Source: an uncultured archaeon (lineage in GTDB: Archaea > Iainarchaeota > Iainarchaeia > Iainarchaeales > 0-14-0-20-30-16). From it: DNA of 17,698 bases. A model generated the notes under the pieces. It made no database searches. It was not told the DNA's origin and was given only the letters and a program-made list of their open reading frames with translations. The position numbers and the translations under genes were made by a program. Positions within the stretch are counted from its first letter, which is position 1. Every line of letters starts with the position of its first letter. The DNA is taken from positions 1 to 17,698 of the forward strand of contig CAYZSS010000013.1 in the NCBI GenBank assembly GCA_964480435.1, given 5' to 3'. This document shows positions 2,770 through 17,698 of this stretch, in pieces.

Positions 2770-2773
2770 ATTT

Positions 2774-3730: not shown

Positions 3731-3732
3731 AA

Positions 3733-3749: not shown

Positions 3750-3769
3750 CAACTTAGATTTATACAAAA

Positions 3770-4405
3770 TCAGTTTCTTATTTTTTTAATTAACAGCAAG
3801 CCATTATCAATTTGAAGAGGATAACTGATTATTCTATTATCATTTTTTACCGTATCTAAAAATTTTGTCATATATTTTTTATAATTAGTAATATTATCTG
3901 CTACAATAATACCCCCAAGCCTAAGTTTAGGAAATACCTGTTCATAGTATTTATGGTAATCTTCTTTTTTTGCATCAATAAAAACAAAATCAATTTTCTT
4001 TTTGAATTTTTTTAATGCAGAAAAAATATCTTCTTCAAAAATAGTTATTTGTTTTTCTAACCCAGCGGAAACAATATGTTCTTTTGCCAATTTTATTTTT
4101 GGTTTAAACACCTCAATAGAATAAACATGCCCTTTTGTTTCCTTAGCCCCAAGACCAAACCACATACCAGAGTAACCTATAGAAGTGCCAAGTTCAAGAA
4201 TAGTTTTTGAACTTGTAGATACTACTAAGAATCGCAAAAATTCAGCAGTTGATCTTGAAACCTGCCAAGCATAAATAACGCCTTTAGTTTTATTTTTGGT
4301 AACTACATCTGTGTAATTTTTTGTTGGCACCCAGTTAATTGTTTTCCCTAGCTTTTCAACATCTTTAGAAACTCTTTCAAAATTATCTAAAAAACTTTGA
4401 TTCAT
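3770..4405 (-). CDS. Class I SAM-dependent O-methyltransferase (caffeoyl-CoA OMT / Methyltransf_3-like)
   Basis: Motifs are ILELGTSIGYSGMWF (SAM motif I), FVFIDAKKEDYHKYYE and LRLGGIIVADN, which match the FIDADK..Y / GG.IV.DN signature of family-3 O-methyltransferases. I prefer ATG 4405 (MNQSFLDNF...) because it follows a GTGAT Shine-Dalgarno site and lies 4 nt after the upstream stop. The track start, ATG 4444, would overlap the upstream gene by 35 nt. Confidence 0.8.
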   Translation of the reverse strand: MNQSFLDNFERVSKDVEKLGKTINWVPTKNYTDVVTKNKTKGVIYAWQVSRSTAEFLRFLVVSTSSKTILELGTSIGYSGMWFGLGAKETKGHVYSIEVFKPKIKLAKEHIVSAGLEKQITIFEEDIFSALKKFKKKIDFVFIDAKKEDYHKYYEQVFPKLRLGGIIVADNITNYKKYMTKFLDTVKNDNRIISYPLQIDNGLLLIKKIRN

Positions 4406-4409
4406 TATA

Positions 4410-6830
4410 TCACTTCTTAAATGCACTTGCTGTTTTTCCTGCATCCCAGGTTACCCTTGGTCTAATCTTTACTAACCAAAGCTTTTCAGAATTATCATCC
4501 AAGATTAATGCATATCCTTTTGCTCTGGGCATTCTTGCAAAATATTTATCCATATCCTCATGTAAATAACTTGGTCTTAGTGCAGACACAGCATCAATAT
4601 CTGGTTTTGCAGTCATTCTCATACTTAAAAATAAATCACACTGGGAAATTGCATCAGGATGTAATTTCTCTGGTCTCTGAGTTGCTAACAATAAACTCAA
4701 TCCAGGTTGTCTTCCAACTCTCACCCACTCAAGCAAAACATCTAATGCCATACTTGGTCTATCTTTTGGCATGAACATGTGGGCTTCATCAATAAGCATC
4801 CAAATCATTGGAAGGTCATTCTTTTTTTCTCCTTCCCCAATTAAAGTTATTTCTTCTTTTTTTCTTTCTAACATTCTTTCTTCATACAATCTTTTTCCAA
4901 GAAGAGCAACAATAATTTCTCTTATATTTTCCATCCCTAAAACTTGACCATAAGTTGAAACATCAATAATATTTACAAACCCAGGTTTAGCCATATCTCT
5001 TACCCCTGTTCCTGTTTTTGAAAATATACCCCATGACTCAGCAACATCAAATCTATTTTTCAAACTTACTCTTACATCTTTATCTGTTTCCTGCATCATA
5101 TCAATTGTAGCTTGTATTTCTTTTATTCCATAATAAGTTCCAAAAGTTTCTTTTGCTTTTTCAATTACATCCAACAATAATGATGCTTCTTTGTCGTTCC
5201 AACCAAGTTTGAACATTGAGAACCATTCCATTGGATCAAGATCAGAAGTTTTTATTGTAAATGCATCGTCCACAGGCATTTTATTTGTTTTATAAAAATC
5301 TAGTTTTCCTTGTGGAACTAAAACCCTTAGATTCTCCATTCCTTGTGGTTCCAAACCCCATTCCCTAATTATTGATTCATCTTCTTTATTTGCTAATTTC
5401 ATACTCCAAAAAATTCCAACAGTATCAATAACAAAAATAGACATTCTATTTCTTATTTCTGGCGGAAGATTAGAAAAACCTTCAATAAAAACCGACATCG
5501 CGTAGCTCTTACCACTATTGTGACTTATTATGCCATTAGCAATAAAAGAATGATTTTTTGGTACTTGTAAATCATAAACTTTTTTTATCCCTTTAATTTT
5601 GCTTATCTTTATTATTTTTTGGAAAAAGGACGTACTATCTAAGTATTCTGTTGATTTTCTTTTTTCCACCTTGTTAAATTTTCTTTTTTCTAATCTATTT
5701 TGTTTTTCTTTCTGGAAAAAACTTATTTCTGTTCTATATTTTTTTACTGAACTATAATCAGAAATGTCTAACTCATAGGACGTGAATTTTTTACCATTAC
5801 AAGTAGTTTTTTTTGTTCTAATACAAGATTGAATTCCAAAATAAGCCAACAATAAATTTAGGTCTCTGATTAATCCAATTGAATTGGAATAATAATTTAC
5901 TCTTACACCTTTTTTTTCGACGTATCCATCACAAGAAAATAATGCCTTAATAAATTCACTTTTAAATTTATTAGAAGATTCCCAAACTACTTTAGGAATA
6001 CGTATTATTTTATCTTTTTTTCCACGCGGAACCCCCAACTTTTCAAAGAAATGTACAATTTTTTGTTGTTCTGTTGTTACTATTTTACAATTTTCTTTTC
6101 CTTTTTCTTCGATTCTAGATTGAATTCCAAACTCTAAATCTAAATCTTTTTTCGTCCGAGTTAATATTTCTTCATCCCCAGCTATAATCCTTACTCTTGC
6201 TTTATTACCATTATATAGGTAACCCTTGCCATCTTTATAAATTCCAGACCTTATTTGCATACTACCATCAGATAATAAGAATCCCAGCAGCCTTGCAACC
6301 CTTAAACTATACTTATTTTTTATCTTTATTTCCGGCAGACTATAAACAGTTAAAATTTCATCAGTATCTTTTATTTTGCTTGCTTTAATCCACTCTGTTT
6401 TCTTGTTTCTTCTAATTAATAATGGATGCTCAGTAGTAGCTATTAACTTTTGCCCATCCTTAAATTCAAATTCACGCATCTCTTCGTTATTAGCCACATC
6501 GTAAATGATAAGCTTTGCTTTTTCCCATTCAAATTTGTTTTTTTCTATATTATAAGATAATACCTTATCTTTAGGTAAAAAAGTTGATATTTGTTTATAA
6601 CCCTTATCAGTAAAAATAAGAGTATCTTCAACAAGACAACCCCTTTTACCACAAATAAGTACAACATGGGGACTTGCAAGATCAACAAATACTTTTCTAC
6701 CTAATACTGGATTTTCTCCAGAGCTCATTACTACTTTTGCTAAAAATCCAGTTCCTTTTGCACCATATTTGTTAATATCTTTTTCTGGTCTTCCAACAAT
6801 AATATCTTCAGCTGCTAATTCAAAACCCAT
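4410..6830 (-). CDS. HerA/DUF87-type (FtsK-HerA superfamily) P-loop ATPase, intein-containing (paralog 1); extein about 430 aa
   Basis: After removing the intein, Walker A reads ICGKRG|SGKSYAMS. Walker B is WMLIDEAHMFMP. The sensor motif is LLLATQRPEKL and the C-terminal motif is VKIRPRVTWDAG. The track start is GTG 6839. ATG 6830 (MGFELAAEDIIVGRPE) lies 4 nt after a GTGAT Shine-Dalgarno site. Confidence 0.85.
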   Translation of the reverse strand: MGFELAAEDIIVGRPEKDINKYGAKGTGFLAKVVMSSGENPVLGRKVFVDLASPHVVLICGKRGCLVEDTLIFTDKGYKQISTFLPKDKVLSYNIEKNKFEWEKAKLIIYDVANNEEMREFEFKDGQKLIATTEHPLLIRRNKKTEWIKASKIKDTDEILTVYSLPEIKIKNKYSLRVARLLGFLLSDGSMQIRSGIYKDGKGYLYNGNKARVRIIAGDEEILTRTKKDLDLEFGIQSRIEEKGKENCKIVTTEQQKIVHFFEKLGVPRGKKDKIIRIPKVVWESSNKFKSEFIKALFSCDGYVEKKGVRVNYYSNSIGLIRDLNLLLAYFGIQSCIRTKKTTCNGKKFTSYELDISDYSSVKKYRTEISFFQKEKQNRLEKRKFNKVEKRKSTEYLDSTSFFQKIIKISKIKGIKKVYDLQVPKNHSFIANGIISHNSGKSYAMSVFIEGFSNLPPEIRNRMSIFVIDTVGIFWSMKLANKEDESIIREWGLEPQGMENLRVLVPQGKLDFYKTNKMPVDDAFTIKTSDLDPMEWFSMFKLGWNDKEASLLLDVIEKAKETFGTYYGIKEIQATIDMMQETDKDVRVSLKNRFDVAESWGIFSKTGTGVRDMAKPGFVNIIDVSTYGQVLGMENIREIIVALLGKRLYEERMLERKKEEITLIGEGEKKNDLPMIWMLIDEAHMFMPKDRPSMALDVLLEWVRVGRQPGLSLLLATQRPEKLHPDAISQCDLFLSMRMTAKPDIDAVSALRPSYLHEDMDKYFARMPRAKGYALILDDNSEKLWLVKIRPRVTWDAGKTASAFKK
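5517..6638 (-). mobile_element. Intein (374 aa) with LAGLIDADG homing-endonuclease domain, inserted in the Walker-A loop of HerA paralog 1 between GKRG and SGKS
   Basis: Block A is CLVEDTLIF, with Cys1 at codon 6638-6636. Block B is ATTEHPLL (TxxH). The LAGLIDADG motifs are LLGFLLSDGSM and FIKALFSCDGYV. Blocks F/G are VYDLQVPKNHSFIANGIISHN, followed by +1 Ser. The terminal Asn is codon 5519-5517. I checked both codon positions against the sequence. Confidence 0.88.
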
Positions 6831-6874
6831 AAGTATCACACTTCATTCTATATATGTTAAAATAGTATATAACT

Positions 6875-7135
6875 TTATTTCAAAGCCATTACTACAAACC
6901 CATATTTTTCAACATCTTCTTTTTTCCACATTGTAGCATTTTTTGTTTTCAATACAGAAGTTATTTTCTTTTCTAAAACCCTACCAGTATAATCTTTTGT
7001 TCTGGGGTCCCATTCTTTTAGAACTAAAATGTCCCCTTCTTTGCAATCAAAATCCGCAACTCTTATATCATAAGTTTTGCTTCCGTTTTTTACTAAATCA
7101 AAATACTCTGGCCAACATTTTTTTTCTATTTTCAT
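6875..7135 (-). CDS. DUF3850-like / ASCH-PUA-fold small protein
   Basis: The 86-aa ORF reads KKCWPEYFDLVKNGSKTYDIRVADFDCKEGDILVLKEWDPRTKDYTGRVLEKKIT. This matches my recollection of the DUF3850 pattern (W-PEYF..v..G.KtfEiR.nDRdf.vGD.L.L.Ew....YTGR). A 9-nt gap separates it from the upstream gene. Confidence 0.7.
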   Translation of the reverse strand: MKIEKKCWPEYFDLVKNGSKTYDIRVADFDCKEGDILVLKEWDPRTKDYTGRVLEKKITSVLKTKNATMWKKEDVEKYGFVVMALK

Positions 7136-7144
7136 ATTCTCACA

Positions 7145-7672
7145 TTAATCCATTTTTTCGAATTTTCTTTCATCAAAATGTTCTCTTAATCCATGGAACA
7201 CAATACCATAATTAACATATTTTTTTCCATCAGTATCAATATCATGCCATCTTTTCATTAATTCTTTATAGGGTATATAAGTTCTCAAAAAAGAGGAAGG
7301 ATCTGCAAAATAGATTCTTTTTCTATCATAACCTATTGCAACAACATAATGGCCATCAACCCAGTCTTTTTCCCAGTCAACATGCTTTTTATCAGTCCAA
7401 GCTTGCAAAACAAGTATTACTGGTTTTTTATGTGCCAAGTGCTTCTTCAATTCTTTTAGTGTCATATCATGCACAGTTGCATGCAAACCATATTTTTCTG
7501 CTACTTTCATAATTCCAGAAATAGGGGTGCCATTCTTAGAGGTACCAGCAAGTTTCATGATGATATCCTCTCTTACATCCTTCCCATAATATGCCAACAC
7601 CAATTGCACAGCCTTTGCACCGCAATCATAATTGTAGGTTTGCCTACCCCGAGGAAAATCAATCATTTTCAT
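7145..7672 (-). CDS. Papain-fold cysteine peptidase, C39-like (Peptidase_C39_2-like)
   Basis: Candidate catalytic motifs are QTYNYDCGAKAVQLVLAYYG (Cys), VDGHYVVAIGYD (His) and YFADPS (Asp). The track start at 7732 is TTG. The first ATGs are at 7672 and 7666 (MKMIDFPRGRQ). aaatataaat lies about 25 nt upstream of 7672, which suggests a leaderless transcript. Confidence 0.7.
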   Translation of the reverse strand: MKMIDFPRGRQTYNYDCGAKAVQLVLAYYGKDVREDIIMKLAGTSKNGTPISGIMKVAEKYGLHATVHDMTLKELKKHLAHKKPVILVLQAWTDKKHVDWEKDWVDGHYVVAIGYDRKRIYFADPSSFLRTYIPYKELMKRWHDIDTDGKKYVNYGIVFHGLREHFDERKFEKMD

Positions 7673-7759
7673 AATAGATATATTTCTTTGAAATTTATAT
7701 TTGTTACTATCAAAGTAGGAGCCAAACAGCAAAGGTTAGACAAAAAAATAACAATTTAA

Positions 7760-7800
7760 ACAAAAATAGAAATAATAGAAAAAGTGGCATTAATGCCACT
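7760..7800 (-). terminator. Stem-loop plus T-tract, a likely terminator of the Sm/MinD/HerA operon transcript
   Basis: agtggcattaatgccact (7783-7800) is an 18-nt perfect palindrome. On the minus strand it is followed by TTTTTCTATTATTTCTATTTTTG (7782-7760). Confidence 0.45.
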
Positions 7801-7801
7801 G

Positions 7802-7920
7802 TCTTTCTTTTGGGCAACTAAGAAACCTTTTTGCGTTAAGGCAAAAAGTTTCAGAGCCTGAATAATTTTCCTTTGGAAAATTACTTCTTACTTACCATTT
7901 TCTTTCTTCAAGAAAGAAAA
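7802..7920 (-). other. Series of five consecutive hairpins between the Sm stop codon and the terminator hairpin: a structured 3' UTR or a candidate small RNA
   Basis: I verified the complementary arms by eye. They are 7804-7809/7820-7825 (6 bp), 7827-7834/7841-7848 (ctttttgc/gcaaaaag, 8 bp), 7850-7854/7858-7862 (ttcag/ctgaa), 7863-7871/7875-7883 (taattttcc/ggaaaatta, 9 bp) and 7898-7908/7910-7920 (ttttctttctt/aagaaagaaaa). No ORF is present. Confidence 0.4.
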
Positions 7921-7926
7921 GGGCAG

Positions 7927-8154
7927 TTAGGGAGTTATCATTATCAAAGAGTCTCCTCTTAGCATAGTCTTCCCATATTTAATTTTTACACTGTTGTCTT
8001 CTTCTAGTTGTTCAGCATCATCTAATACAACATTCATGTGTATATCAAAGGCAAGTAATTTTCCTCTTATTTTCACATTTCCTTTCATTAAAACTAATAC
8101 GGATTTTCCTATCCATGAGTTTAAATGATCAAAAGGTCTACTTTCAGTAGTCAT
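7927..8154 (-). CDS. Sm-like archaeal protein (SmAP / LSm)
   Basis: 75-aa ORF. The Sm1 motif is VLVLMKGNVKIRGKLLAFDIHMNVVLDDAEQL and the Sm2 motif is MLRGDSLIMI. A GGGGG Shine-Dalgarno-like run lies 9 nt upstream of the ATG, and a 15-nt gap separates it from the MinD gene. Confidence 0.9.
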   Translation of the reverse strand: MTTESRPFDHLNSWIGKSVLVLMKGNVKIRGKLLAFDIHMNVVLDDAEQLEEDNSVKIKYGKTMLRGDSLIMITP

Positions 8155-8169
8155 AATTATTCCCCCAAT

Positions 8170-8952
8170 TTATTTTTTGTTCTTAGAAAAAATTCTTTTA
8201 ATCCAAGCAAAGAACCCACCTGATTCGTTCTTGAATTCTATTTGAATCCCTAATATTTTTCCTGCAACAGCAAGTACTGCTTTTGATGCCATTGCATTTG
8301 GATTACGTATAATTACTGGTTGTATTTTTTTATAGTAAAATGTTTTTCTTACTTCTTCATCATATGGTATTACCCCATACAAAGGTAATTCAAGCATGCT
8401 AATAATATCTTTTTCAGGTATTTCTCCTTTTAATCCAGCATACATATTAATTATAACTCCAACCGGTTTTGCATTTATTCTTTGTGCAGATATTTTTGTT
8501 TTTAGGGCATCTGCAATAGATAAAGAATGTGGATTCACAACCAAAAATACTTCTGTTGATGATGCCATAGCAGCAAGAGTGTCTTCCCCAATTCCAGCAG
8601 GACAATCCAATAATACAAAATCATATTTTGGAGCCACTTGTTTAATTATATTAGGCAACTTTGTTAAATCTAATCTTTGGGTATCTTGCAATCCTAAAGA
8701 AGCAGGCATAATATTTATTTTTTCAGGACCATCATAAACAACATCCCAAACTCCAGCATCCCCTTTAAGTACATCATTCAAAGTTATTGGACTTGTTTCC
8801 ATTCCGAGTATTAAGCTTAAATTCGCCATTGCCAGATCAGTATCAACTAATAACACTTTTTTTCCTTGTCTTGCCAAAGCAACACCTAAGTTAGCAACCA
8901 CAGTAGTTTTTCCTACTCCTCCTTTTCCTGATGCAAAAGCAATTATTCTCAT
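8170..8952 (-). CDS. minD: MinD/ParA-family ATPase (archaeal MinD-like, SIMIBI class) with a C-terminal amphipathic tail
   Basis: The deviant Walker A is IAFASGKGGVGKTTVVANLG. Further motifs are LLVDTD and a Walker-B-like FVLLDCPAG. The C-terminus, GGFFAWIKRIFSKNKK, resembles a MinD membrane-targeting helix. The track start at 8964 is TTG. ATG 8952 (MRIIAF) follows a GGTGAT Shine-Dalgarno site. Confidence 0.9.
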   Translation of the reverse strand: MRIIAFASGKGGVGKTTVVANLGVALARQGKKVLLVDTDLAMANLSLILGMETSPITLNDVLKGDAGVWDVVYDGPEKINIMPASLGLQDTQRLDLTKLPNIIKQVAPKYDFVLLDCPAGIGEDTLAAMASSTEVFLVVNPHSLSIADALKTKISAQRINAKPVGVIINMYAGLKGEIPEKDIISMLELPLYGVIPYDEEVRKTFYYKKIQPVIIRNPNAMASKAVLAVAGKILGIQIEFKNESGGFFAWIKRIFSKNKK

Positions 8953-8972
8953 ACATATCACCAAAATACTTT

Positions 8973-9443
8973 TTAAATTTTAACAAAAGACATAATTTTT
9001 CTATATTCTTCTAGAAAAATATTTTTACCATAAACTGCAATATCTTTTGATACTGCATTTAACTCAAACTCGCTTAATCTTGCCTCACTCTTTATTAGAT
9101 ACACAAAGTCATCTCTCTCAAACATACTTACCCAGCTTCCCACATTAAAATAAAGAACTTTATCTTTTCTTTTAAACGCTGAAAACATATCGTAAATTTT
9201 GTTTGCTAATTCCAGAATTTCTGGAGAGGATGAATAAAGCAAATTATTAGCTTTAAAAACAACCACGCTATCAATTAAATGTTTTCTTAGTAAAGAGTCC
9301 ACAAATTCATTAAATGTGTTTCTTGATATTTCTGTAACGGAATATTCTTTAGAAACATCTTTCAGATAATTTATTTGTTCTAATGGCAGGTCAGTGTCAT
9401 CAAGGCCCAATATTTTATATACCAATTTTGAAAATATATTCAT
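8973..9443 (-). CDS. Hypothetical protein (156 aa); possibly a roadblock/LC7-like fold, weakly supported
   Basis: The ORF is tightly packed, with its ATG 1 nt after the upstream stop. The alpha-beta-beta pattern ...FVDSLLRKHLIDSVVVFKANNLLYSSSPE...VLYFNVGSWVSMFERDDFVYLIK is only reminiscent of roadblock/LC7. No diagnostic motif was seen. Confidence 0.55.
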   Translation of the reverse strand: MNIFSKLVYKILGLDDTDLPLEQINYLKDVSKEYSVTEISRNTFNEFVDSLLRKHLIDSVVVFKANNLLYSSSPEILELANKIYDMFSAFKRKDKVLYFNVGSWVSMFERDDFVYLIKSEARLSEFELNAVSKDIAVYGKNIFLEEYRKIMSFVKI

Positions 9444-9444
9444 A

Positions 9445-9933
9445 TTACAACCCTATATTACCTAAACCAATTTCCTTAAGCAGAGCATATTTATCCTTAC
9501 TTAGCTCAGATTTATCTATATATTTCTCTACTAAAGACTCTTTATATTCCTTTATGTAATTATCAAAGATTTTCTGCATATTCGCTGATTTTATCAGGAT
9601 TTTATCATTAAAGGTAATAATTAACTCCATTTGTTCATTTGTTAGTCTAAAAACATCAAAACAGCCAAATTGTGAAGCAAAAGAGTTAAAAAATAGCCTA
9701 ATCCCTTCTTCACCATAAATTATTTTATCAAATGCTAAAAATGCATGAGAGCAACCCATTACAGAACCCTGTTTAAAAAACAAAGTAGAATCTTCAAACC
9801 CATAGTTCATTTTTGTTGTTACTGCAATATAACCACTAAAGTTTTTGGATTGCAGATCAGAGATAACTTTCCTAACATCAACTTTTTTTATGTCAATATT
9901 TTCTGCTACTCTTTCACCAACTGGAATATTCAT
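9445..9933 (-). CDS. Hypothetical protein (162 aa); possible PATAN/DUF4388-like domain, weakly supported
   Basis: VISDLQSKNFSGYIAVTTK...STLFFKQGSVMGCSH....IYGEEGIRLFFNSFASQFGCFDVFRL resembles the PATAN pattern L..L....tG.L.v.....g.iyf..G.vv.A.....G.eAl..ll....G.F.f. I prefer ATG 9933, which has a GTGAT Shine-Dalgarno site 6 nt upstream and lies 7 nt after the NYN stop. The track start at 9984 would overlap the NYN gene by 44 nt. Confidence 0.55.
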   Translation of the reverse strand: MNIPVGERVAENIDIKKVDVRKVISDLQSKNFSGYIAVTTKMNYGFEDSTLFFKQGSVMGCSHAFLAFDKIIYGEEGIRLFFNSFASQFGCFDVFRLTNEQMELIITFNDKILIKSANMQKIFDNYIKEYKESLVEKYIDKSELSKDKYALLKEIGLGNIGL

Positions 9934-9940
9934 AAAAATA

Positions 9941-10399
9941 TCACTTTCTCTCTTTATCAAGCACAATAACATAATCCGCCGCATTCTTTAATGCTGATCC
10001 GGAAGATTCATCCACAAGTATTACTGCAACATCTTTTCCATGTTGTTTCGCTTTTACTATTGCTGGCAAAAAATCTGAATCTCTAGTAACCAAACAAATA
10101 ACATCAATATTTGGATTAAACACTGTCTCAGTAGCTTCAACAGCCATCATCACATCAATATCTGAAACACAAACAGCAACTTCAAATCCCTGATTTATTA
10201 CTGCTTCTACTAATTTCCCTGGTGCAAACTGGTTCAGATACACTTTACCAATTTTCATAACCCCAAGTTTATTTATTATACCTTTTACCTTACCCAGGTC
10301 CAAACTAAACTCTTTCCTAAGCATATTTGGGCCATCAATAAATACGGCTACTTTCTTCTCTTTTTTTGTCTTAAATTTATCCCAAACCCTTTCCAACAT
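9941..10399 (-). CDS. NYN-domain (LabA/DUF88-like) protein, a predicted RNase fold
   Basis: The acidic motifs are in the order expected for a LabA-type NYN domain: VAVFIDGPNM, VSDIDVMMAVEA and LVTRDSDFLPAIVKAKQHGKDV. Confidence 0.8.
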   Translation of the reverse strand: MLERVWDKFKTKKEKKVAVFIDGPNMLRKEFSLDLGKVKGIINKLGVMKIGKVYLNQFAPGKLVEAVINQGFEVAVCVSDIDVMMAVEATETVFNPNIDVICLVTRDSDFLPAIVKAKQHGKDVAVILVDESSGSALKNAADYVIVLDKERK

Positions 10400-10438
10400 A
10401 AAAACACCATATATTAGTTATATAAAATGTAATTTAAA

Positions 10439-13400
10439 CTATTCTACTTTATGACCATAATAACTATCAAATAAAGCTACTTGGTTAGACTCCTCATTTT
10501 TAAACATATATTCCTTTCTCAAAAGAGTATCTATGTTTTCTATTTTTATATTTTTCCATATTATTCCAATCAGCGACCTTAAACTCTCCATACTTATTCT
10601 AGGATCAAGTATATGTTCCTGCTCAACTTCCTGCTCCATTAGGTGTATTTCACCAACCGAAGAAAGTAGTTTTAGTTTAGGGTTCTGTGGAACTTCTATT
10701 GTTTTCAACGCAAAGTATACATTCCTTATTCCTCTTTTTTCTTTTCTTACCAATCCTGCAGAAATAAATCTCTCCATCATATTCTTCAGTTTTACTTCTC
10801 CAAAACTACTTAATTCTTCCAAATAAGCAACATCAAACCCTTTATTCTTTGGCAATTTTAAGATTAACCTTAAATCATCTGCATCAAAGGCTTTTATTTC
10901 TGTTAGCCCTTGGGAATAAACAAAGTCATTGTCTATGTTATGTAGAAACTCTATTTTTACTGGGTCAATATAACATTCATTTGTTACAAAACCGCCGTCA
11001 GGGTTATAGATTTTATAATCCACTTTTAGAATTGGCCTATAAACCGTGCTTACAACAAAATTAGTCCAACCAAGTGTTCTCTTTGCAACACCCTCCACCT
11101 GCTCTTTATCATAGGTCTCTTCTAAAACAGCGTACTTAACTTTTTCTCTATATTCTTCCTGCTCTTCTTCTTTTTCAATTGATAAAATATCATCTTCTAA
11201 TTTTGCTCCACTATCCACCAAGGAGCCCAAAAACTTTTCAAACCCAACTGTTGATTTGTATTTCATATTTAGAATTTTTAGTAAAGTTTCCAAAGAATGC
11301 ATATCCAAAGACCCATACCTATCCAGTTTGCCCATTCCGATTTCTGCCATTATTTTCAGCAGGTCTTTTTCTTTGTATTCATATTTTATTTCTGCTGTCT
11401 GGGTTTCTCTTCCCTCGTGTTGTGACATTCTAGGTCTTACTTTTATAACAAATGCTCTGGAAGTTGTTTCAACTCTATCCGCAACCAGAGGAACACCAAT
11501 CTCAAGCCTTTTTATGAATTCTGGTTTCCTAAATTCAGCGGGCACTATTGTTGGGATTCTTCTATACACTGCTTTAATATCATCATCAAAAACTAATTTA
11601 TAAGAAATTAAAGTTCCTACCTGTGACAAAACCCTGGTATCAATTGCCGATGGTTGCTGAGTTGCAAACACCAATGAACAACCTGGCCTTCTTCCTTGTT
11701 TTACATATTCTATTATTGCTTTTGATGCTGGAGTTTCCAAAGACCCAGACGGAATTAAGGTGTGGGCTTCATCAATAAATAACCAAGTTGGAGGAATATC
11801 CATTTCTAAAGTATCTAGTGCTTCACCACCATTACTAAATTTCTTTACTGCTTGCTTTCTAGTTGCAATCTTTCTTGCAGATAAAATTCTTCTGGCAATA
11901 ACACCAACCAACAAAGCAGCAACAGTTTCATCCAAAAAACTAACATCAATTACTGTTAATTGACCTGGCACTGAAATCTCAATTAAGGGAGTTCCCTGCT
12001 TTGCAAAAATACCCCATGATTTCCCTGCTTCAAATCTTGAAATTAATGCTCTCATAGAATCTTTTTTGTAACCTTTTTCTTTTGAGTTTAATTCAGCATC
12101 ATCCCTCAAACAGTTAGTAATATCATCAATTTCATAATTCCCATTTTTTCCTTTTACTATTAATCCAGCTAAAGACCTATATCCATCTCTTACTTTTATT
12201 AAAACTTTTTCTAATAGTAAGCCTAAAGGACTAAATCTATCAATCCCAAAGGTTAATGCCCAATCTTCCGCAGTCAGGAAAGATGGCTGGATTGTAAAAA
12301 CAGCATCATAAGTTTCTTTAGGGGTCTTTGATTTTGCCCCTTCAGGGATAAATACCATTACATTATCCAATCCTTTTGGATCTAATCCCCATTCTCTTAA
12401 TTGTTTTATTTCGCTCTCTTGCCTGTTTGGATATTTCATACTCCAAAATACACCCACAGGGTCAATAACAACCATTCCTACATTTGGATTCTTCATTGCT
12501 AATTCTTCTGCAACAACACCCAAAACATAGGAGTTATGCACAAAAACACTGTTAGCAATAAAATTATGATACTTAGGGATAGTAATATCGTAAACTTTTG
12601 TTTTTCCCTTTATTTCTTTTATGCTTACTATCTCATCCCAAAAAATATCTGAATTAGCCAAAGTAGTTAGTTCTTTATTTTTTAACAAAGCCCCAATTTT
12701 TTGCAATTTATCTCTACCAATATCATAACATTTGCAACTAATTATTGATTTAGGACTTTTGTAGCCATAATCTCTTCCGAGCTTTGCCCAATTCTCTACT
12801 TTTATTTTTTTAAATATTTCTTTAGGGATAGTATCGATATTAGTATTATACTTTATTTTTTCAAGTTCTTTCTTAGCAATTTTTGAGACCTTTTCTTTTC
12901 TTCCATAAAATCCAATTCTATCTATAAAGTCTGCAACAAATCTTCCAGCAATAACAATTTCAAAACTCCTAACATACTTTCCTAAATATTTTACTTTCTT
13001 TTCTCTTATTCTATTCACAATTCCAAATCTTAACAAAAGATGATGAACTTGTTTGATTAAGTCTTCAGAAGAAGAGCTATAAGATAATTGCCAACAGTTA
13101 TTGTAAAATATAGATCCATCACAACTAAACAGCCTATTCAAAAACAAAGCAAGTTTTTCCTTTCTTAATGTAAAAATCTCTTTAGGAATAAATCTTTCCG
13201 GGGACTTTTTCCCGTACAGTTCAACGGATTCCAAGTACTGCACAAGAGAGTTTTTTAGCATTTTTATTTTTGATTCATTAGTAAACATCCCTTTTGAATT
13301 TCTTTTTAGTCCAGAGCAGTCAGTTTTTTTCTTTTTTTGTGCTACTCTAAAACACCCAGCTCTTGAATGGATTTCCACTCTTAAGTTGCTATCAAAATCA

Positions 13401-14419
13401 TTTACTGCTTTCTTAAATTCATCAGAAATTACTTTATCTTCGTTAGAAAATAACACAAAAGAATTACCCATATGCCCTTCTGCAATCAAATATGCCAAAA
13501 GCTTTACTTTATGGTCTTCTAAATTACTTTTCCCAAAAGCAGGGATTTCTCTGGGCGTTGCGATCTTAGTACCTTTCTTTATTTTTTCTGCAGGTTCCCA
13601 ACCATTAATTGTGTACAGAGGATGCTCAGGAGTCAATTTTATTGTTTTTCCTGAATTTAATTTTAGTTCTAATATCTTCTTTACTTCTCTTTCATAAAAG
13701 TTCTTTTTCTTGATTTTTTTAATCTTTAAATTATCATCCATTGCTAATAGTTCTTCATCTTTCTTCAAATCTTTTATTTGCTTTATTTCTCCATTTGCAA
13801 GAATTATCTCTGTTTCCCCTACAAGGCACTTTCCTGATCCTCTGGACCCACATACAAACATTACCTGAGGGTCTAAAGAATCAAAGTAAATTTCTTTTGC
13901 TTCTTCACCATCTTCGTAAACTTTTCCTAAATACAAAGCAGCTTCTTCACCGTATTTTTCAAAAACAGATCTCTTTCTTCCAACCATTGCATGGCCAGTT
14001 AAAGGATTTTCTAAAAAAGTTAAAGGCACATTGCACTTGTTAATTATTTTTGTTACATTATCTTTAATTAGTTCAGCATCAGGAATTCCAAATACAGGTT
14101 CATCACGAGTAGAGTTAGATTCTTCAAGTCCCTCTTCTAAGCTATCTTCACTTTTGGATTCTGTTGTTATTGCATCCTCACTATCAGTATTTTCTTCTAT
14201 TTTCTTTCTTGATGCTCTTTTCTTCTTTGGTTTTATCTCAGTCATAGGCTCTTGATCCTGTGACTCTTGATTAGATTCTTCGGGTATTTCTTTTGTTTCT
14301 GCTACGGGTGTTTCTTCCGGTTCTGCTTTTTCCACAAGATTATTTGAATATACGGTTGTCTTTCCTTCTTTTTTCTCTGGATTCCCAGCCATATCATCAA
14401 ATATATCAAACATTCCCAT
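10439..14419 (-). CDS. Giant HerA/FtsK-superfamily ATPase (paralog 2), 1326 aa: acidic disordered N-terminus, intein-interrupted ATPase core, 316-aa C-terminal extension with a wHTH-like motif
   Basis: The spliced Walker A reads VCGSRGSGK|SYVLG. Walker B is WLFIDEAHTLIP. The sensor motif is LVFATQQPSAI and a further motif is IKVRPRMSQHEG. The core is collinear with paralog 1, for example VGR..KYG...LGKV...D..P.V...CG.RGSGKSY. The C-terminal region carries MERFISAGLVRKEKRGIRNVYFAL. Confidence 0.85.
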   Translation of the reverse strand: MGMFDIFDDMAGNPEKKEGKTTVYSNNLVEKAEPEETPVAETKEIPEESNQESQDQEPMTEIKPKKKRASRKKIEENTDSEDAITTESKSEDSLEEGLEESNSTRDEPVFGIPDAELIKDNVTKIINKCNVPLTFLENPLTGHAMVGRKRSVFEKYGEEAALYLGKVYEDGEEAKEIYFDSLDPQVMFVCGSRGSGKCLVGETEIILANGEIKQIKDLKKDEELLAMDDNLKIKKIKKKNFYEREVKKILELKLNSGKTIKLTPEHPLYTINGWEPAEKIKKGTKIATPREIPAFGKSNLEDHKVKLLAYLIAEGHMGNSFVLFSNEDKVISDEFKKAVNDFDSNLRVEIHSRAGCFRVAQKKKKTDCSGLKRNSKGMFTNESKIKMLKNSLVQYLESVELYGKKSPERFIPKEIFTLRKEKLALFLNRLFSCDGSIFYNNCWQLSYSSSSEDLIKQVHHLLLRFGIVNRIREKKVKYLGKYVRSFEIVIAGRFVADFIDRIGFYGRKEKVSKIAKKELEKIKYNTNIDTIPKEIFKKIKVENWAKLGRDYGYKSPKSIISCKCYDIGRDKLQKIGALLKNKELTTLANSDIFWDEIVSIKEIKGKTKVYDITIPKYHNFIANSVFVHNSYVLGVVAEELAMKNPNVGMVVIDPVGVFWSMKYPNRQESEIKQLREWGLDPKGLDNVMVFIPEGAKSKTPKETYDAVFTIQPSFLTAEDWALTFGIDRFSPLGLLLEKVLIKVRDGYRSLAGLIVKGKNGNYEIDDITNCLRDDAELNSKEKGYKKDSMRALISRFEAGKSWGIFAKQGTPLIEISVPGQLTVIDVSFLDETVAALLVGVIARRILSARKIATRKQAVKKFSNGGEALDTLEMDIPPTWLFIDEAHTLIPSGSLETPASKAIIEYVKQGRRPGCSLVFATQQPSAIDTRVLSQVGTLISYKLVFDDDIKAVYRRIPTIVPAEFRKPEFIKRLEIGVPLVADRVETTSRAFVIKVRPRMSQHEGRETQTAEIKYEYKEKDLLKIMAEIGMGKLDRYGSLDMHSLETLLKILNMKYKSTVGFEKFLGSLVDSGAKLEDDILSIEKEEEQEEYREKVKYAVLEETYDKEQVEGVAKRTLGWTNFVVSTVYRPILKVDYKIYNPDGGFVTNECYIDPVKIEFLHNIDNDFVYSQGLTEIKAFDADDLRLILKLPKNKGFDVAYLEELSSFGEVKLKNMMERFISAGLVRKEKRGIRNVYFALKTIEVPQNPKLKLLSSVGEIHLMEQEVEQEHILDPRISMESLRSLIGIIWKNIKIENIDTLLRKEYMFKNEESNQVALFDSYYGHKVE
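12533..13828 (-). mobile_element. Intein (432 aa) with LAGLIDADG homing-endonuclease domain, inserted in the Walker-A loop of HerA paralog 2 between GSGK and S
   Basis: Block A is CLVGETEIIL, with Cys1 at codon 13828-13826. Block B is LTPEHPLY. The LAGLIDADG motifs are LLAYLIAEGHM and FLNRLFSCDGSI. Blocks F/G are VYDITIPKYHNFIANSVFVHN, followed by +1 Ser. The terminal Asn is codon 12535-12533. I checked both junction codons against the sequence. Confidence 0.88.
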
Positions 14420-14463
14420 TTTTTACACCCTATTGGTTAATTAGAATAATATTTAGTTTCGTT

Positions 14464-14471
14464 ATATAAAA
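14464..14471 (-). promoter_or_regulatory. TATA box (TTTATATA on the minus strand) upstream of the HerA-paralog-2 operon
   Basis: The plus-strand tatataaa at 14464-14471 is TTTATATA on the minus strand, about 45 nt upstream of ATG 14419. GGGTG lies about 6-10 nt upstream of the ATG as a Shine-Dalgarno site. Confidence 0.4.
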
Positions 14472-14514
14472 GGAAAAAAGATATATAAATATAGGGTATA
14501 TTTAGGAAATTATT

Positions 14515-15537
14515 CTAGGCATATTTTGCCTTTCCAGTATTAACAATCAATATTTTCTTATCCTTAGGGATTTTATCTTTCATTTGTAACAGCAAAGCCA
14601 AACCAGAAATTCCAGATGGTTCAAAATTAATTTTCTGTGCTGCTGCAATTTCCATTGCTTTATCCAAGAATTCTTCTTTTAAAATATAAACACTAGATGC
14701 TTGCCCACAAAATCCAGCATAACGATAAAATCTCATCCATTGTTCATCATAGTGTACAAAAGGCAAATGTGGAGAATACAATTTTTCCGCCTTTGATCTT
14801 GGATTATTAGTAGTAACTCCAAAGAAATTACATTTTCTTATTTTTTCTATATCTCCCTTAAATCTTTTATCCTGTTTTTTTGAAGATATTTCTTTTCTAA
14901 CAATATTCAAAATATTTTCATAAAGTTGTCCAGTCCCAAAAGGAACAAAACAATAGTCTGGGCTGGAATTAATTATTTCATAGCTAAGCCAGTCATAAAA
15001 CCGCATTGTTGGATCCAAAGCAATGTTAGAAGTAATATCAAACCCATCTAAATTATGTGTTAAGATTAGTATCTCTTTACTGCCAAATGGTTTTTCACTT
15101 AAATCTGTTTTGTATATTTCACAGCCAATTTTTTCTAGTTTTTCTATTATACTCTTGTTAAGATATTCATCAACCAAAACTTTTAGAGATGGCAATCCAT
15201 ATTTAGCTAACACAGTTTGTATTGCAAATGCTGCAGACCCAGATGAGATTATAGACATTTGGGGTAATTTTGACTTTACTAACCCTTTCTTTTTTGACAT
15301 CAAAAAGTCTCGATAATTTACAATTATTTCCCAAGCCATCCTGTCCTTATGTGTTCCCGTTGGATTATAGCTTTCATCTTTTAACCAAACATTTGTGAAT
15401 CCAGGTACCTTTATTTTATAAGTAGGAGTAGCAGGAAATTTTGGGTTTTCAGGAGGAAATTCTGGTTTGTTAGGGTTATTTTCAGACGGTACAACAATTG
15501 ATTTTAATATTTTTTCTTCTTTCTTTGATAATCCCAT
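14515..15537 (-). CDS. Fold-type-II PLP-dependent enzyme (Trp-synthase-beta / threonine-synthase-like superfamily), divergent
   Basis: LKDESYNPTGTHKDRMA matches the PLP-lysine motif K.E..NPTGSFKDRGA. SSGSAAFAIQ resembles the AS.GN.g loop, and VPFGTGQLYENI resembles the glycine-rich phosphate loop. It has its own AGGTG Shine-Dalgarno site and an upstream TATA-like tttttatatat. Confidence 0.72.
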   Translation of the reverse strand: MGLSKKEEKILKSIVVPSENNPNKPEFPPENPKFPATPTYKIKVPGFTNVWLKDESYNPTGTHKDRMAWEIIVNYRDFLMSKKKGLVKSKLPQMSIISSGSAAFAIQTVLAKYGLPSLKVLVDEYLNKSIIEKLEKIGCEIYKTDLSEKPFGSKEILILTHNLDGFDITSNIALDPTMRFYDWLSYEIINSSPDYCFVPFGTGQLYENILNIVRKEISSKKQDKRFKGDIEKIRKCNFFGVTTNNPRSKAEKLYSPHLPFVHYDEQWMRFYRYAGFCGQASSVYILKEEFLDKAMEIAAAQKINFEPSGISGLALLLQMKDKIPKDKKILIVNTGKAKYA

Positions 15538-15599
15538 CTAAACACCTTTTTTATTATATAATAAATAAGGTAAAATATATAAAAACAGTTTATAACAGC

Positions 15600-16562
15600 T
15601 TACGGCCAATTTCTTTTAAACCAGTAAACTCTTTTGTGTCTTCCATCAAAAACAGTTATTCCATAAGAAGAATCAGCTTTAACAAAAACTACTGGAGAAA
15701 GATATAGCCCAATTACTTTTCCATTATCAAACAAAGGGTTAGTAACATCAAATATGTGCCAAATACCATCCAATTTTACTAAGTTAAAAGCACGAGGTCC
15801 ATTTTCTGCTATTTGCCCACCATTTTCATCTGTATGCTCCAGTTTTATTTCTCCCACAACATACCTTGATTCAATCCCTAATTCCTGTAAAATTAATTGT
15901 GCAAGCATAGAAAGTTCTGAACACATTCCAACTTTTTCTTTTACAAATTCTGATAACTTTTGTGCTGAATCTATTTCAGAATCATAGGTCCTATCCGAAA
16001 TTAATTGTCTCTTTGCTTCACTCTGTTCAAAAGAAGCATATAAGAACTTTGCAACTAAAGCAATTTCTGTTTTTTGGGTTTTAGGAAGATGTGGAGCAGA
16101 ACCAGAATAAGTTTCAATATATTTTTTAACATCAGATATTAATTTTTTTATTTCTTGGCTGTTAGGGTCTATCTTTGTTGCATGCCCAAATGGAGAAATA
16201 GGTAACACATCCCCTTCTTGTAATTCTTTTATAATTCCCCCTCTAAATATCCCCACTGCATCAGAACCATGGCTTTCAGCAGAAACATATTTATCCATAA
16301 ATTTTGCTGCCCTAAAATTTGTTATAGCTCCTCTTGCAAGCAAAATTTTTTCTTTAAAAAGAGGATCTGATTTTATTTTTCTTACTGCTTCTTTTATTTT
16401 TTCTGGATCAGATAAAGTTCCAAATTCTAAACCAAAAAGAGATTCTAATACAGCCATGCTATTTTCTTTTCTTCCATGTGTAGTTTCAGGAGTTAATTTA
16501 TGATCCTTTACCAAATCAGCAATTCTTGCTCTTACTTCCGGCTTTAATTCTCTAAATGGCAT
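15600..16562 (-). CDS. Hypothetical protein with a C-terminal transglutaminase-like (papain-fold) core
   Basis: KVGMCSELSMLAQLILQELGIESRYVVGE ... RAFNLVKLDGIWHIFDVTN parallels the transglutaminase-core pattern G.C..fa.l....R.lGIpaRyV.G ... HAW.EV...g.W..fDpT. The N-terminal ~200 aa were not recognised. Confidence 0.55.
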   Translation of the reverse strand: MPFRELKPEVRARIADLVKDHKLTPETTHGRKENSMAVLESLFGLEFGTLSDPEKIKEAVRKIKSDPLFKEKILLARGAITNFRAAKFMDKYVSAESHGSDAVGIFRGGIIKELQEGDVLPISPFGHATKIDPNSQEIKKLISDVKKYIETYSGSAPHLPKTQKTEIALVAKFLYASFEQSEAKRQLISDRTYDSEIDSAQKLSEFVKEKVGMCSELSMLAQLILQELGIESRYVVGEIKLEHTDENGGQIAENGPRAFNLVKLDGIWHIFDVTNPLFDNGKVIGLYLSPVVFVKADSSYGITVFDGRHKRVYWFKRNWP

Positions 16563-16574
16563 AAAAATCCCTTA

Positions 16575-16615
16575 CAATAGTTTACTTCCATTTTCTGCTT
16601 TCTTTTCTAAACAGG
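16575..16615. repeat. Direct repeat copy A: a displaced or duplicated 3' end of the csaA-like gene
   Basis: It contains tttacttccattttctgcttt (16581-16601), identical to 17440-17460. On the minus strand it still reads ...LEKKAENGSKLL-stop, compared with the gene's real end ...PEKKAENGSKLY-stop. Confidence 0.8.
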
Positions 16616-16619
16616 TTAT

Positions 16620-16805
16620 TCACCAAACAGATAAACCTTTCATTTTAAGATATTGTTCTTTAGTATAATTTGCAGATTTTATTGAAGAATTTATTATTAC
16701 ATTTTGTTGTTTAGACCAATCAAGGTCATCATGAGTTTTTACATAGTCCGCCCACAATTTAACAAACTTCATTCTTTCCCCATTATTTTCCGAAATAAAA
16801 CTCAT
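16620..16805 (-). CDS. Small hypothetical protein (61 aa, or 50 aa from ATG 16772), second gene of the NTase cassette
   Basis: The ORF overlaps the NTase gene by 23 nt if it starts at 16805. The internal ATG 16772 (MKFVKLWADYV...) has a GGGGA Shine-Dalgarno site 6 nt upstream and lies 10 nt after the NTase stop. No family was recognised. Confidence 0.45.
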   Translation of the reverse strand: MSFISENNGERMKFVKLWADYVKTHDDLDWSKQQNVIINSSIKSANYTKEQYLKMKGLSVW

Positions 16806-17367
16806 TTAACATCACCGCATATTTTTTTATTAATTCGTTACTAAGGTGTCCATACGCAACAGCCCGTATGTGTTGCGCATCTTCTAAATCTTTAGGAGAC
16901 TTTAGAACTTGTTCTTTAAAAGCAATCTGCAATTCTAAACAAGAAATAATAATTTGTTTATCTTTCACCATAATCTCAATAGGCCTAGATAAAGCAAGTT
17001 CATCAAAAGGAGTCTTTACAAATTTTACTTCCATATTTGGAATTATCGTATCTTTTTTTGCAAATCTTACTGAAACATTATTTTTCAAATAATCATAAGC
17101 TTCTTTATAGTCATCAGTATTAAGACAGTAAAAATCATTAGCGTATAACTCCTTGCACAAAGCCTTAAAAGAGATAAAATTTAACTTAGGAACTATTAAG
17201 TCAATGTCTTCACTTGCCCTAGATCTCCCCAATAGGATCGCCACATAACCGCTAATAATTACATATTTTGAGTGAGGTTCTAAAATCTTTAAAAAATCGA
17301 GTGTAAAGTTATCCAAATCAGACAATTCTCTATCTAGCTTTATTTTTGATTTAGATACAAACTCCAT
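16783..17367 (-). CDS. Nucleotidyltransferase-fold protein (minimal NTase, MNT/AbiEii/DUF6036-like)
   Basis: VIISGYVAILLGRSRASEDIDLIVP fits the pol-beta NTase signature G[GS]-x(9-13)-DhD. At 194 aa, its size is typical of toxin-antitoxin or abortive-infection NTases. Confidence 0.55.
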   Translation of the reverse strand: MEFVSKSKIKLDRELSDLDNFTLDFLKILEPHSKYVIISGYVAILLGRSRASEDIDLIVPKLNFISFKALCKELYANDFYCLNTDDYKEAYDYLKNNVSVRFAKKDTIIPNMEVKFVKTPFDELALSRPIEIMVKDKQIIISCLELQIAFKEQVLKSPKDLEDAQHIRAVAYGHLSNELIKKYAVMLNEFYFGK

Positions 17368-17430
17368 ATAGTAAAATAGACTGTTTCTTTTTAAAATAGT
17401 ATCGAATTTAGCCCTTAAAACACCACTAAA

Positions 17431-17698
17431 TCAATATAATTTACTTCCATTTTCTGCTTTTTTCTCAGGGACTGCTAATACAACCCCTTTATCTGTATAG
17501 AATCCAGTTGTTAAAACTTCAGAAAAAAATTTACCTATTTGTTTAGGAGGAAAATTAGTTACACATATTACTTGCTTACCAATTAATTCTTCTTTTTTAT
17601 ACAAAGCAACAATTTGTACACTGGAATTTTTTATTCCAATTTCTTTACCAAAATCTATTTTCAATTTATACGCTGGTTTCTTAGCCTCAGGATAATTT
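17431..17698 (-). CDS. csaA: CsaA-type tRNA-binding-domain protein (EMAP/Trbp111 OB fold), C-terminal part; the gene continues beyond the window end
   Basis: The frame is open to the window edge: NYPEAKKPAYKLKIDFGKEIGIKNSSVQIVALYKKEELIGKQVICVTNFPPKQIGKFFSEVLTTGF. This matches the CsaA pattern FPEArKPAYKl.iDFG.eiG.K.SSaQIt..Y..EeLiG.qV..VvNFpPkqIg.f.SEVL. The track 'M' at 17664 is a TTG Leu codon. Confidence 0.85.
   Translation of the reverse strand, partial: NYPEAKKPAYKLKIDFGKEIGIKNSSVQIVALYKKEELIGKQVICVTNFPPKQIGKFFSEVLTTGFYTDKGVVLAVPEKKAENGSKLY
17432..17469. repeat. Direct repeat copy B, the authentic 3' end of the csaA-like gene
   Basis: It shares the 21-nt perfect core (17440-17460) and imperfect flanks (caata..., ...ttct..cagg) with 16575-16615. 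Confidence 0.8.

Follow-up and report, generated by a model that had tools for sequence, protein, structure and literature searches.

Known integrative elements include phage 21 and e14, which insert in icd and carry a replacement 3' end for this gene, and the elements of the tRNA-targeting archaeal integrases. A different process, C-terminal displacement by homology-facilitated illegitimate recombination, leaves orphaned 3' ends in Rhs, contact-dependent inhibition (CDI) and type VI secretion system (T6SS) effector-immunity arrays (PMC5361080). Among the toxin-antitoxin (TA) modules with nucleotidyltransferases (NTases), the MenT toxins extend the 3' ends of tRNAs by nucleotides; MenA1, a two-helix protein of 68 amino acids (aa), neutralises MenT1, and the catalytic Lys and Asp of motifs III/IV in MenT1 are K137 and D152 (PMC10435456). 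We analysed a stretch of 17,698 nucleotides (nt) of an uncultured archaeon of the Iainarchaeales (GCA_964480435.1, contig CAYZSS010000013.1, positions 1 to 17,698; hereafter the window). Near its right end, a cassette of two genes, for a 194-aa NTase-fold protein and a 61-aa partner, is bounded by a direct repeat of the 3' end of csaA. As far as sequences can tell, this pair is an unannotated and new variation, pan-archaeal in its distribution, on the NTase toxin-antitoxin theme, and it carries reproducible recombination scars. It is not categorically new, since the fold family and the end-displacement process both have precedents. On balance, we consider it somewhat probable that a TA-like accessory module was acquired by homology-anchored recombination with end displacement.

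Every gene in the right-hand 3 kb of the window lies on the minus strand. The order in the direction of transcription is csaA, leader, 194-aa open reading frame (ORF), 61-aa ORF, tail, orphan repeat, spacer, transglutaminase-like gene, and then the genes for a pyridoxal-phosphate-dependent enzyme (PALP) and an intein-bearing HerA-type ATPase. The features of the locus are:

17431..17698, minus strand: csaA (tRNA-binding domain, CsaA-like; PF01588, TIGR02222), 3' 89 codons, running past the window end
17431..17469, minus strand: repeat copy 1, last 12 codons and stop of the functional csaA (PEKKAENGSKLY-TGA), perfect core at 17440-17460
17368..17430, minus strand: cassette leader of 63 nt, with an A/T-rich TATA-like box CTATTTTAAAAAG about 21-33 nt 5' of the ATG
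16783..17367, minus strand: gene of the 194-aa nucleotidyltransferase-fold protein, putative toxin (S39-G40, D54-x-D56, E113; predicted structure)
16620..16805, minus strand: gene of the 61-aa partner, putative antitoxin (precomputed Pfam assignment PF26477, DUF8150), overlapping the NTase gene by 23 nt
16611..16619, minus strand: 9-nt tail ATAACCTGT from the stop of the small ORF to the orphan repeat, presumed illegitimate joint
16572..16610, minus strand: repeat copy 2, orphaned csaA 3' end (LEKKAENGSKLL-TAA), perfect core at 16581-16601, with no gene body upstream
15600..16562, minus strand: transglutaminase-like gene (PF01841), 320 aa, resident downstream neighbour; relatives of 322/323 aa cover 99%

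The initial annotation of the window had described a perfect 21-nt repeat within an imperfect one of about 40 nt, and both were recovered. The 21-mer TTTACTTCCATTTTCTGCTTT is identical at 16581-16601 and 17440-17460. A repeat finder extended it to 31 nt with 90% identity (16577-16607 and 17436-17466), and reading by codons revealed a homology of 36-39 nt, with 39 nt covered by 17431-17469 versus 16572-16610. Even with up to three mismatches the 21-mer occurs only twice in the window, at a chance expectation of 0.01; none of 200 shuffled sequences contained it two or more times. The start-to-start spacing of the copies is 859 nt, and the 859-bp unit consists of the promoter leader, the 194-aa gene and the overlapping 61-aa gene; no further ORF lies between the repeats. 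That the upstream copy is the true csaA end and the downstream copy an orphan was borne out by translation and by the family assignment. The 88 CsaA residues within the window scored 123 bits with the NCBIfam model TIGR02222 (chap_CsaA, cutoff 119.65) and 39.1 bits with PF01588, above the cutoff of 27, and the full-length protein has 110 aa in a longer contig of the same species (L001, 5765-6097; L numbers label the contigs and loci compared, W the window). Six independent assemblies of the species (L001-L004, L098, L099) agree in this arrangement, hence it is not an assembly artefact. A scan of the window found no tRNA gene and no Rfam family. The 63-nt leader is probably the cassette's own archaeal promoter, which would give a near-leaderless mRNA; in the leaders of two relatives, L005 and L014, TTTAAA is located at about -27 to -21.

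By their flanking genes, the nearest relatives are DPANN archaea, one of them labelled Candidatus Iainarchaeum, at protein identities of 70-88%. Their neighbourhoods, together with the window, present five arrangements. In L015 and L016, csaA ends with ..KLL-TAA and is followed after 10 nt by the transglutaminase-like gene, with no cassette. L013 has HisRS, the transglutaminase-like gene, csaA (ending KLL-TAA) and HerA, and no cassette at the locus. In L005, HisRS is followed at 448-645 by a csaA pseudogene, reduced by heavy deletion to fragments that are still recognisable (..DFG..KEIGIKNS..ICVTNFP..), then by the cassette and, 280 nt further on, by HerA. L014 contains HisRS, directly after it a damaged cassette, then a HAD hydrolase gene and the transglutaminase-like gene. 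The fifth arrangement is that of the window, in which the ATG of the transglutaminase-like gene lies 9 nt past the orphan stop. A five-way alignment showed the orphan, this spacer and the gene start of the window collinear with the csaA-to-gene junction of L015. Thus the cassette is an insertion relative to the csaA-transglutaminase adjacency, and the orphan represents the end of the resident csaA, which stayed where it was. The empty site predicted in the initial annotation exists, in related archaea, and insertion of the cassette at such a site is highly probable. A look-up of the window PALP protein returned only cassette-bearing contigs of the same species, hence no empty allele within the population, and the transglutaminase-like protein, as query against metagenome contigs, matched none but the window's own contig. 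In the damaged cassette of L014 (6640-7066) the NTase gene is a pseudogene: 2 nt are inserted behind the ATG, which causes a frameshift, and about 330 nt are lost internally. Its DUF8150 ORF, directly downstream, is intact and 81% identical to that of the window. A dead NTase with a kept partner is the pattern expected for the decay of a toxin with retention of its antitoxin. The same contig has an N run at 7876-7985 with a second copy of the beginning of the transglutaminase-like gene beside it, a scaffolding artefact of the public assembly.

Neither the 194-aa protein nor its 61-aa partner had a meaningful match in Pfam, NCBIfam, PADLOC or PHROGs. For the 194-aa protein, with hmmscan against Pfam-A (E <=0.1) solely a sub-threshold hit to Prophage_tailD1 was obtained and none to PF08843 (AbiEii/DUF1814), and the precomputed Pfam field was empty for all 120 listed homologues. 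A sequence profile search of the PDB gave no true homologue, and viral contigs and phage records contained no relative of the NTase. Homologues were found in 596 clusters (E <=1e-3, 90% database), the best 120 of them at 55-73% identity; an exhaustive search gave 490 clusters at 50% identity. In an alignment of 30 sequences S39-G40, D54, D56 and E113 were invariant, as were K151, K159, D160, D163 and H166 in the C-terminal helices, which include the conserved block LELQIAFKExVLKSPKDxEDAxH; these residues are candidates for the counterparts of K137 and D152 of MenT1. The AlphaFold2 model reached a predicted local distance difference test (pLDDT) score of 95.2 and a predicted template modelling score (pTM) of 0.90. 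Best Foldseek matches in the PDB were MenT1 alone and in the MenAT1 complex (8an5/8an4; E 5e-7 to 2e-6, template modelling (TM) scores 0.53-0.65), with 15-16% sequence identity in the structural alignment, followed by the fungal nucleotidyltransferase-like protein 5uvd, MenT3/TglT (E 1.7e-4), LnuA and ANT(2'')-Ia. An NTase fold had been proposed from the sequence; the motif S39-G40...D54-x-D56...E113 and the structure prediction bear it out, the sequence-family searches do not. The model supports a Pol-beta-type NTase fold, structurally closest to the MenT toxins.

The 61-aa partner follows the NTase in 93 of 94 loci, and in most of them the two genes overlap by 4-23 nt. Its core is strongly conserved (W-x-Y-V-R-T-H-x-D-x-x-W-S-x-Q-Q-N-x-I-I-N-S, including WSxQQNxIINS), and a single-sequence AlphaFold2 model predicts, with moderate confidence (pLDDT 68), two helices. 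The assignment to PF26477 (DUF8150) comes from precomputed tables, and hmmscan with the local Pfam gave no such match. No paper was found in a literature search on DUF8150. In PADLOC-DB 2.0 (E <=1) neither the NTase nor the partner nor the 320-aa transglutaminase-like protein had a match. The pair has the general traits of TA modules, that is, two small co-oriented, overlapping genes kept together, and an accessory, patchy occurrence in variable context with horizontal transfer. The small helical partner and the MenT-like structure are in agreement with the TA or defence module suggested in the initial annotation; PADLOC gave no match, and the function would follow by analogy. The likeness to MenAT1 (MenT1 Rv0078A, MenA1 Rv0078B) comprises a Pol-beta NTase fold of about 190 aa with the S-x-D metal-site signature, conserved Lys and Asp residues in the C-terminal helices as candidates for motifs III/IV, a very short two-helix partner (61 aa versus the 68 aa of MenA1) and a two-gene module of patchy distribution. 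The differences are the reversed order, with the NTase first and the partner second and overlapping, and a partner family, DUF8150, that is more conserved than the enzyme. Unlike the MenT/AbiEii proteins, the NTase has no PF08843 match, and the pair is archaeal (DPANN, Halobacteria and others). With the MNT-HEPN modules, which are abundant in archaea and adjoin the cassette in L010 and L022, it shares the position of the NTase directly upstream of its partner; however, the 61-aa two-helix partner has no HEPN match and no Rx4-6H motif, and the NTase has no match to PF01909 or PF18765.

NTase homologues occur in at least 293 GTDB species representatives of several archaeal phyla (Woese-, Nano-, Aenigm- and Micrarchaeota), also in bins labelled Thermoplasmatales or Methanosarcinales and in one metagenome-assembled genome (MAG) of Archaeoglobus. 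The pair is carried by haloarchaeal megaplasmids of Natrinema, Halorussus, Haladaptatus and others, with NTases 32-38% identical; the haloarchaeal small ORF matched the DPANN-derived profile with an E value of 2e-22. In two of these records (L100, 4515-4811, and L101, 4383-4811; NZ_CP084474.1 and NZ_CP101157.1) a DUF8150-type ORF overlaps the end of the NTase homologue and is missing from the gene tables consulted, and on a Natrinema plasmid a helix-turn-helix/DUF7437 protein is encoded directly upstream of the pair. The 140 immediate neighbours of the pair fell into 184 Pfam families, none of them present in more than four neighbours. No recombinase was among the top 25 families, those common to at least two of the 140 neighbours, and neither the window ORFs nor the extended contigs of about 17 kb contained a recombinase or transposase family. 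Genes of MNT-HEPN and MazE type adjoin the pair in several loci. tRNA genes adjoin the cassette in one of 60 scanned loci (L034, 3739-3905), where a tRNA-Ser and a tRNA-Arg end about 95 nt upstream and no flanking repeat was detected. The tRNA-related neighbours HisRS, IleRS and Dus were considered as a signal and rejected, for 4 of 140 is by our own estimate no more than expected in DPANN genomes. In a marine archaeon (L112-L121; GCA_002688745.1 and Tara contigs) a Dus gene ends 8 nt before the NTase start and a 254-aa gene overlaps the stop of the small ORF; this arrangement was identical in 15 contigs from many samples. One MAG (assembly JBDRRK01) has two cassettes on different contigs (L041 and L092), with NTases 57% and 46% identical to that of the window; the other genomes among the 80 listed loci have one cassette each. 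The structure, the gene coupling, the patchy distribution, the carriage on plasmids, the MNT-HEPN and MazE neighbours and the state of L014 speak for a TA-like accessory module; overall, we give a TA-like function about even chances.

Flanking repeats recur at other cassettes. For each locus, the 200-300 nt upstream of the NTase start were compared to an equal length downstream of the small ORF stop. The ungapped scan gave a score of at least 16 for 9 of 75 non-redundant cassettes versus 1 of 170 neighbouring ORFs (Fisher p = 1.2e-4; the 99th percentile of the null was 12), and in the gapped scan 10 of 77 loci exceeded the null maximum. The ten repeats, of 20-76 nt, are unrelated in sequence. 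In L036 the repeat has 76 nt and comprises the last 25 codons and the stop of the gene for ribosomal protein S7, identified by Pfam, within a NusA-S12-S7 operon, of which NusA and S12 were identified from ORF translations only. The repeat of L006 is perfect (23/23 nt) and contains a TATA-box-like stretch immediately before the start of IleRS, probably the IleRS promoter. L010 and L022 have repeats of 57 and 38 nt from the lysine-rich 5' end of a gene similar to 5-formyl-tetrahydrofolate cyclo-ligase, which is intact beside the cassette in L027. The repeats of L041, L049, L070, L085 and L095 are intergenic and 20-65 nt long, that of L085 being perfect (20/20). The repeat-bounded units measure 769-1108 nt, and in eight of the ten a leader of 20-75 nt precedes the gene pair and a tail of 0-33 nt follows it; L049 and L095 are outliers with longer leaders or tails (169 and 192 nt). 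No terminal inverted repeats and no conserved termini were present in the ten units. Scores for terminal inverted repeats were at background in nine, and that of L010 (11.0) was above the 95th percentile of the null (8.5) and below its maximum (12). At the cassette boundaries in the window, 16572-16620 and 17431-17470, no inverted repeat was found. Stubs of the cyclo-ligase 5' end occur on one or both sides of the cassette in L010 (4895-7065), L022 (2934-4800), L027 (4767-5360) and L021 (3900-4000). All are from one sub-lineage, in which a stub also follows an adjacent MNT-HEPN pair, and L010 and L022 differ by a circular permutation of the order; it looks like a hotspot of successive TA cassettes, each leaving a stub. 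The units resemble the TA cassettes of integrons in being small, promoter-poor or -light, repeat-bounded units of one or two genes with TA cargo, array-like in L010 and L022. They differ in that IntI is absent, that no attC-like imperfect palindrome was seen at the boundaries, where a dedicated attC model was not run, and that the bounding repeats are copies of neighbouring host genes.

The differences between the repeat copies bear on the mode of entry. In the window the copies differ by synonymous changes (GAG/GAA, AAA/AAG, TTA/CTA, TGA/TAA) versus one non-synonymous change (Tyr/Leu), and the core differences in L036 (AAG/AAA, AGT/AGC, TCT/TCA) are all synonymous. For both loci together, 7 of 8 codon differences are synonymous, p about 0.01 against the roughly 40% which we estimate for one freely decaying copy. 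At the three informative sites, where L013 and L015 agree (AAG, Leu, TAA), the orphan is relative-like and the functional copy derived, the opposite of free decay of the orphan. These comparisons of codons argue that the copies are diverged alleles rather than one sequence that was duplicated and then decayed. A possible donor resembles L005 and L014, in which the cassette follows HisRS. The identity of HisRS is 88% between W and L014 versus 84% between L013 and L014, and at residues 241-300 it is 95% versus 68%. The transglutaminase-like proteins are 70% identical for W and L014 versus 80% for L013 and L014; here, and also for HerA, the window is the outlier. This change of relationships across the joint is a third argument for diverged alleles.

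The process that we propose would have started from a resident order of csaA, about 10 nt and the transglutaminase-like gene, with no ancestral cassette at this place. Incoming DNA from a related archaeon, with the module already located after HisRS-csaA, would have paired with the resident csaA, and host recombination would have sufficed, without an own or dedicated integrase. Either a linear fragment, by homology-facilitated illegitimate recombination, or a circularised one, by a single crossover, may have served as substrate, with the same product; a circular cassette junction, if formed, would read ATAACCTGT, one repeat copy, TTTAGTGGTG. The far end would have been joined illegitimately 36-39 nt before the resident csaA stop, so that the incoming end (..KLY-TGA) now closes csaA and the resident end (..KLL-TAA) is displaced and kept as a stub before the transglutaminase-like gene. 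Anchored in a conserved gene beside the module, the same process may account for the stubs in other archaea, with the 5'-end stubs of L010 and L022 and the promoter stub of L006 as the mirror image, anchored on the other side. Translationally coupled to the NTase in a self-contained accessory operon, the partner would block, by binding, an enzyme that by analogy to MenT would add nucleotides to tRNA 3' ends. C-terminal displacement in effector arrays is alike in the upstream homology anchor, the illegitimate far joint, the resident 3' end kept as a stub, and copies that differ like alleles. The locus is different in that 36-39 nt of a housekeeping gene would be displaced rather than a toxin domain, that a TA-like pair is the cargo, and that the hosts are archaea, for which we found no documented case. 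The specific end-displacement mechanism is therefore proposed tentatively, at somewhat less than even chances.

Several observations weigh against the acquisition of a TA-like module by end displacement. A search for csaA homologues revealed no donor allele ending in ..KLY, the closest proteins being 88% and 82% identical. The polarity rests on three sites and the synonymous excess on eight codon differences from two loci. A plain target duplication would account just as well for the non-coding repeats without mismatches (L006, 23/23; L085, 20/20). Within a species, an identical NTase protein always had one and the same context (6 contigs of the window species, and 22, 24 and 15 contigs for the widely sampled NTase proteins P0065, P0022 and P0064), hence no sign of ongoing mobility. 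With regard to the function, the sequences of the pair showed no membership in AbiEii/DUF1814 and no PADLOC match, the partner shows stronger conservation than the NTase, an unusual trait for an antitoxin, the gene order with the NTase first is the reverse of MenAT1 and AbiE, and the Dus operon of the marine lineage may also fit a non-toxic, tRNA-related role.

Among the alternatives, an insertion resembling transposition is unlikely, but would explain the perfect non-coding repeats. Unknown machinery, or the cassette's own Pol-beta-fold enzyme, would act at staggered breaks 20-76 nt apart, fill-in would produce the variable duplication, and the differences between copies would have arisen later by replacement of alleles of the functional gene through homologous recombination. 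This agrees with repeats that vary in length between many unrelated targets and include several perfect ones in non-coding DNA (L006, L085), with their enrichment at the cassette in comparison to neighbouring genes and with the compact, constant unit of leader, two genes and 0-33-nt tail in 8 of 10 cases (L049 and L095 being the outliers). However, a transposase, terminal inverted repeats and conserved termini are lacking, and in contrast to transposons and insertion sequences, with scores for terminal inverted repeats near background, the duplications are 20-76 nt and not of a fixed length. No identical cassette was observed in two contexts. Several repeats end exactly at a stop codon, unlike a random staggered cut, and the synonymous bias and the ancestral look of the orphan are not expected from such a duplication.

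The initial annotation had interpreted the repeats as attL and attR of a site-specific integration. In detail, a tyrosine or serine integrase supplied in trans would have recombined attP, on the circular cassette or a lost larger element, with attB at the csaA 3' end; the repeats would share a 21-nt identical core, and the element would have brought the replacement 3' end. We regard this as improbable. The direct repeat does cover the gene 3' end and restore the gene, the 21-nt core is perfect with diverged arms, a single-copy empty site exists, and the cassettes of relatives are at the same general locus, after HisRS/csaA. With the elements in icd the locus shares direct repeats of a gene 3' end, a gene preserved by an element-borne copy and the partial divergence of the copies; it differs by a size of 0.86 kb, by the lack of an integrase and of a tRNA target, and by repeats that vary with the locus. 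The absence of an integrase noted initially was confirmed for the window and the extended contig, and extended to the contigs of 17 kb and to the families common to at least two of the 140 neighbours. Over 77 loci the same cassette is found in unrelated surroundings. The site-specific model would explain the window alone and not the ten cassettes with ten unrelated repeats of 20-76 nt, some of them promoter or intergenic sequences, with no linked integrase. Compared to site-specific elements, repeats and empty site are present, while linked integrase and reused att core are absent; just 1 of 60 loci has tRNA genes beside the cassette, and the boundaries have no inverted repeats. A crossover in the core predicts a chimera, but the orphan is relative-like on both sides of the core.

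A resident cassette is a further alternative and also improbable, slightly more so in our estimate. The order HisRS-csaA-cassette-HerA, as in L005, would be the original one, and a block of csaA stub, transglutaminase-like gene and PALP, from a genome with csaA next to the transglutaminase-like gene, would have been inserted downstream. The repeat would then be uninformative on mobility and the pair an ordinary, possibly tRNA-related operon. The L005 cassette is indeed directly upstream of HerA, with neither the transglutaminase-like nor the PALP gene, the cassette (73%) has diverged like the host genes (72-76%), the context is stable within species, and in one lineage the pair is part of a Dus operon. 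But L013 and L015 also show a linkage of the transglutaminase-like gene to HerA, a synteny that looks resident, and L005 is visibly degraded, with a csaA pseudogene and a 280-nt spacer. Stubs flank the same cassette in nine other unrelated contexts, for which a resident cassette gives no explanation, and the distribution is patchy and plasmid-borne in haloarchaea. In view of the transglutaminase-HerA linkage and the recurrence, the resident cassette is the less parsimonious explanation. It is very improbable that the NTase/DUF8150 pair is a minimal, recombinase-free selfish element which promotes its own insertion, a new class of archaeal mobile elements instead of a TA module recombined passively. 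In this case the Pol-beta-fold enzyme, together with a small partner that binds DNA or RNA, might for example act at staggered breaks or template switches by priming or fill-in, and long target duplications of variable length, 20-76 nt, would arise beside conserved genes or within their ends.

If the acquisition of a TA-like module by end displacement is true, the MenT-like NTase and DUF8150 define an uncharacterised pan-archaeal TA-like family in at least 293 species representatives, and the orphaned ends, resembling a displaced allele, are the sequence footprints of the entry of accessory cassettes into the compact genomes of DPANN archaea. For these organisms, which have not been cultivated, gene flow is difficult to follow by other means. 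Such stubs are easy to search for and could date and polarise the transfer of other cassettes.

Some further observations concern the window and its surroundings. The 13-mer TCCATTTTCTGCT at 15798-15819, within the transglutaminase-like gene, repeats part of the core a third time; it encodes A-E-N-G there too and is probably a chance microhomology. At 16620-16572 (minus strand) the TGA of the small ORF is followed in frame by ITCLEKKAENGSKLL-stop, and readthrough would add the orphan CsaA tail to the partner. Selection on such a readthrough as the reason for the maintenance of the orphan was considered and rejected as a coincidence, because the orphan of L036 is out of frame. Four nucleotides at 16496-16499 (AAAT) are missing in the same-species contigs L001-L003, by which the first 35 codons of the transglutaminase-like gene are frameshifted and a protein of 285 aa is called; since proteins of 322/323 aa from relatives align over 99% of the 320-aa form, the window version is probably the intact one. 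The difference could be a population polymorphism or an assembly error. The window contains two genes for HerA/DUF87-type ATPases, at 10439-14419 and 4410-6839 (both minus strand), each with an intein bearing a LAGLIDADG homing-endonuclease domain. The orthologue of the first gene in L013 has 890 aa versus 1326 aa and no intein domain, and that of L005 has the intein, thus the presence of the intein varies among the relatives.

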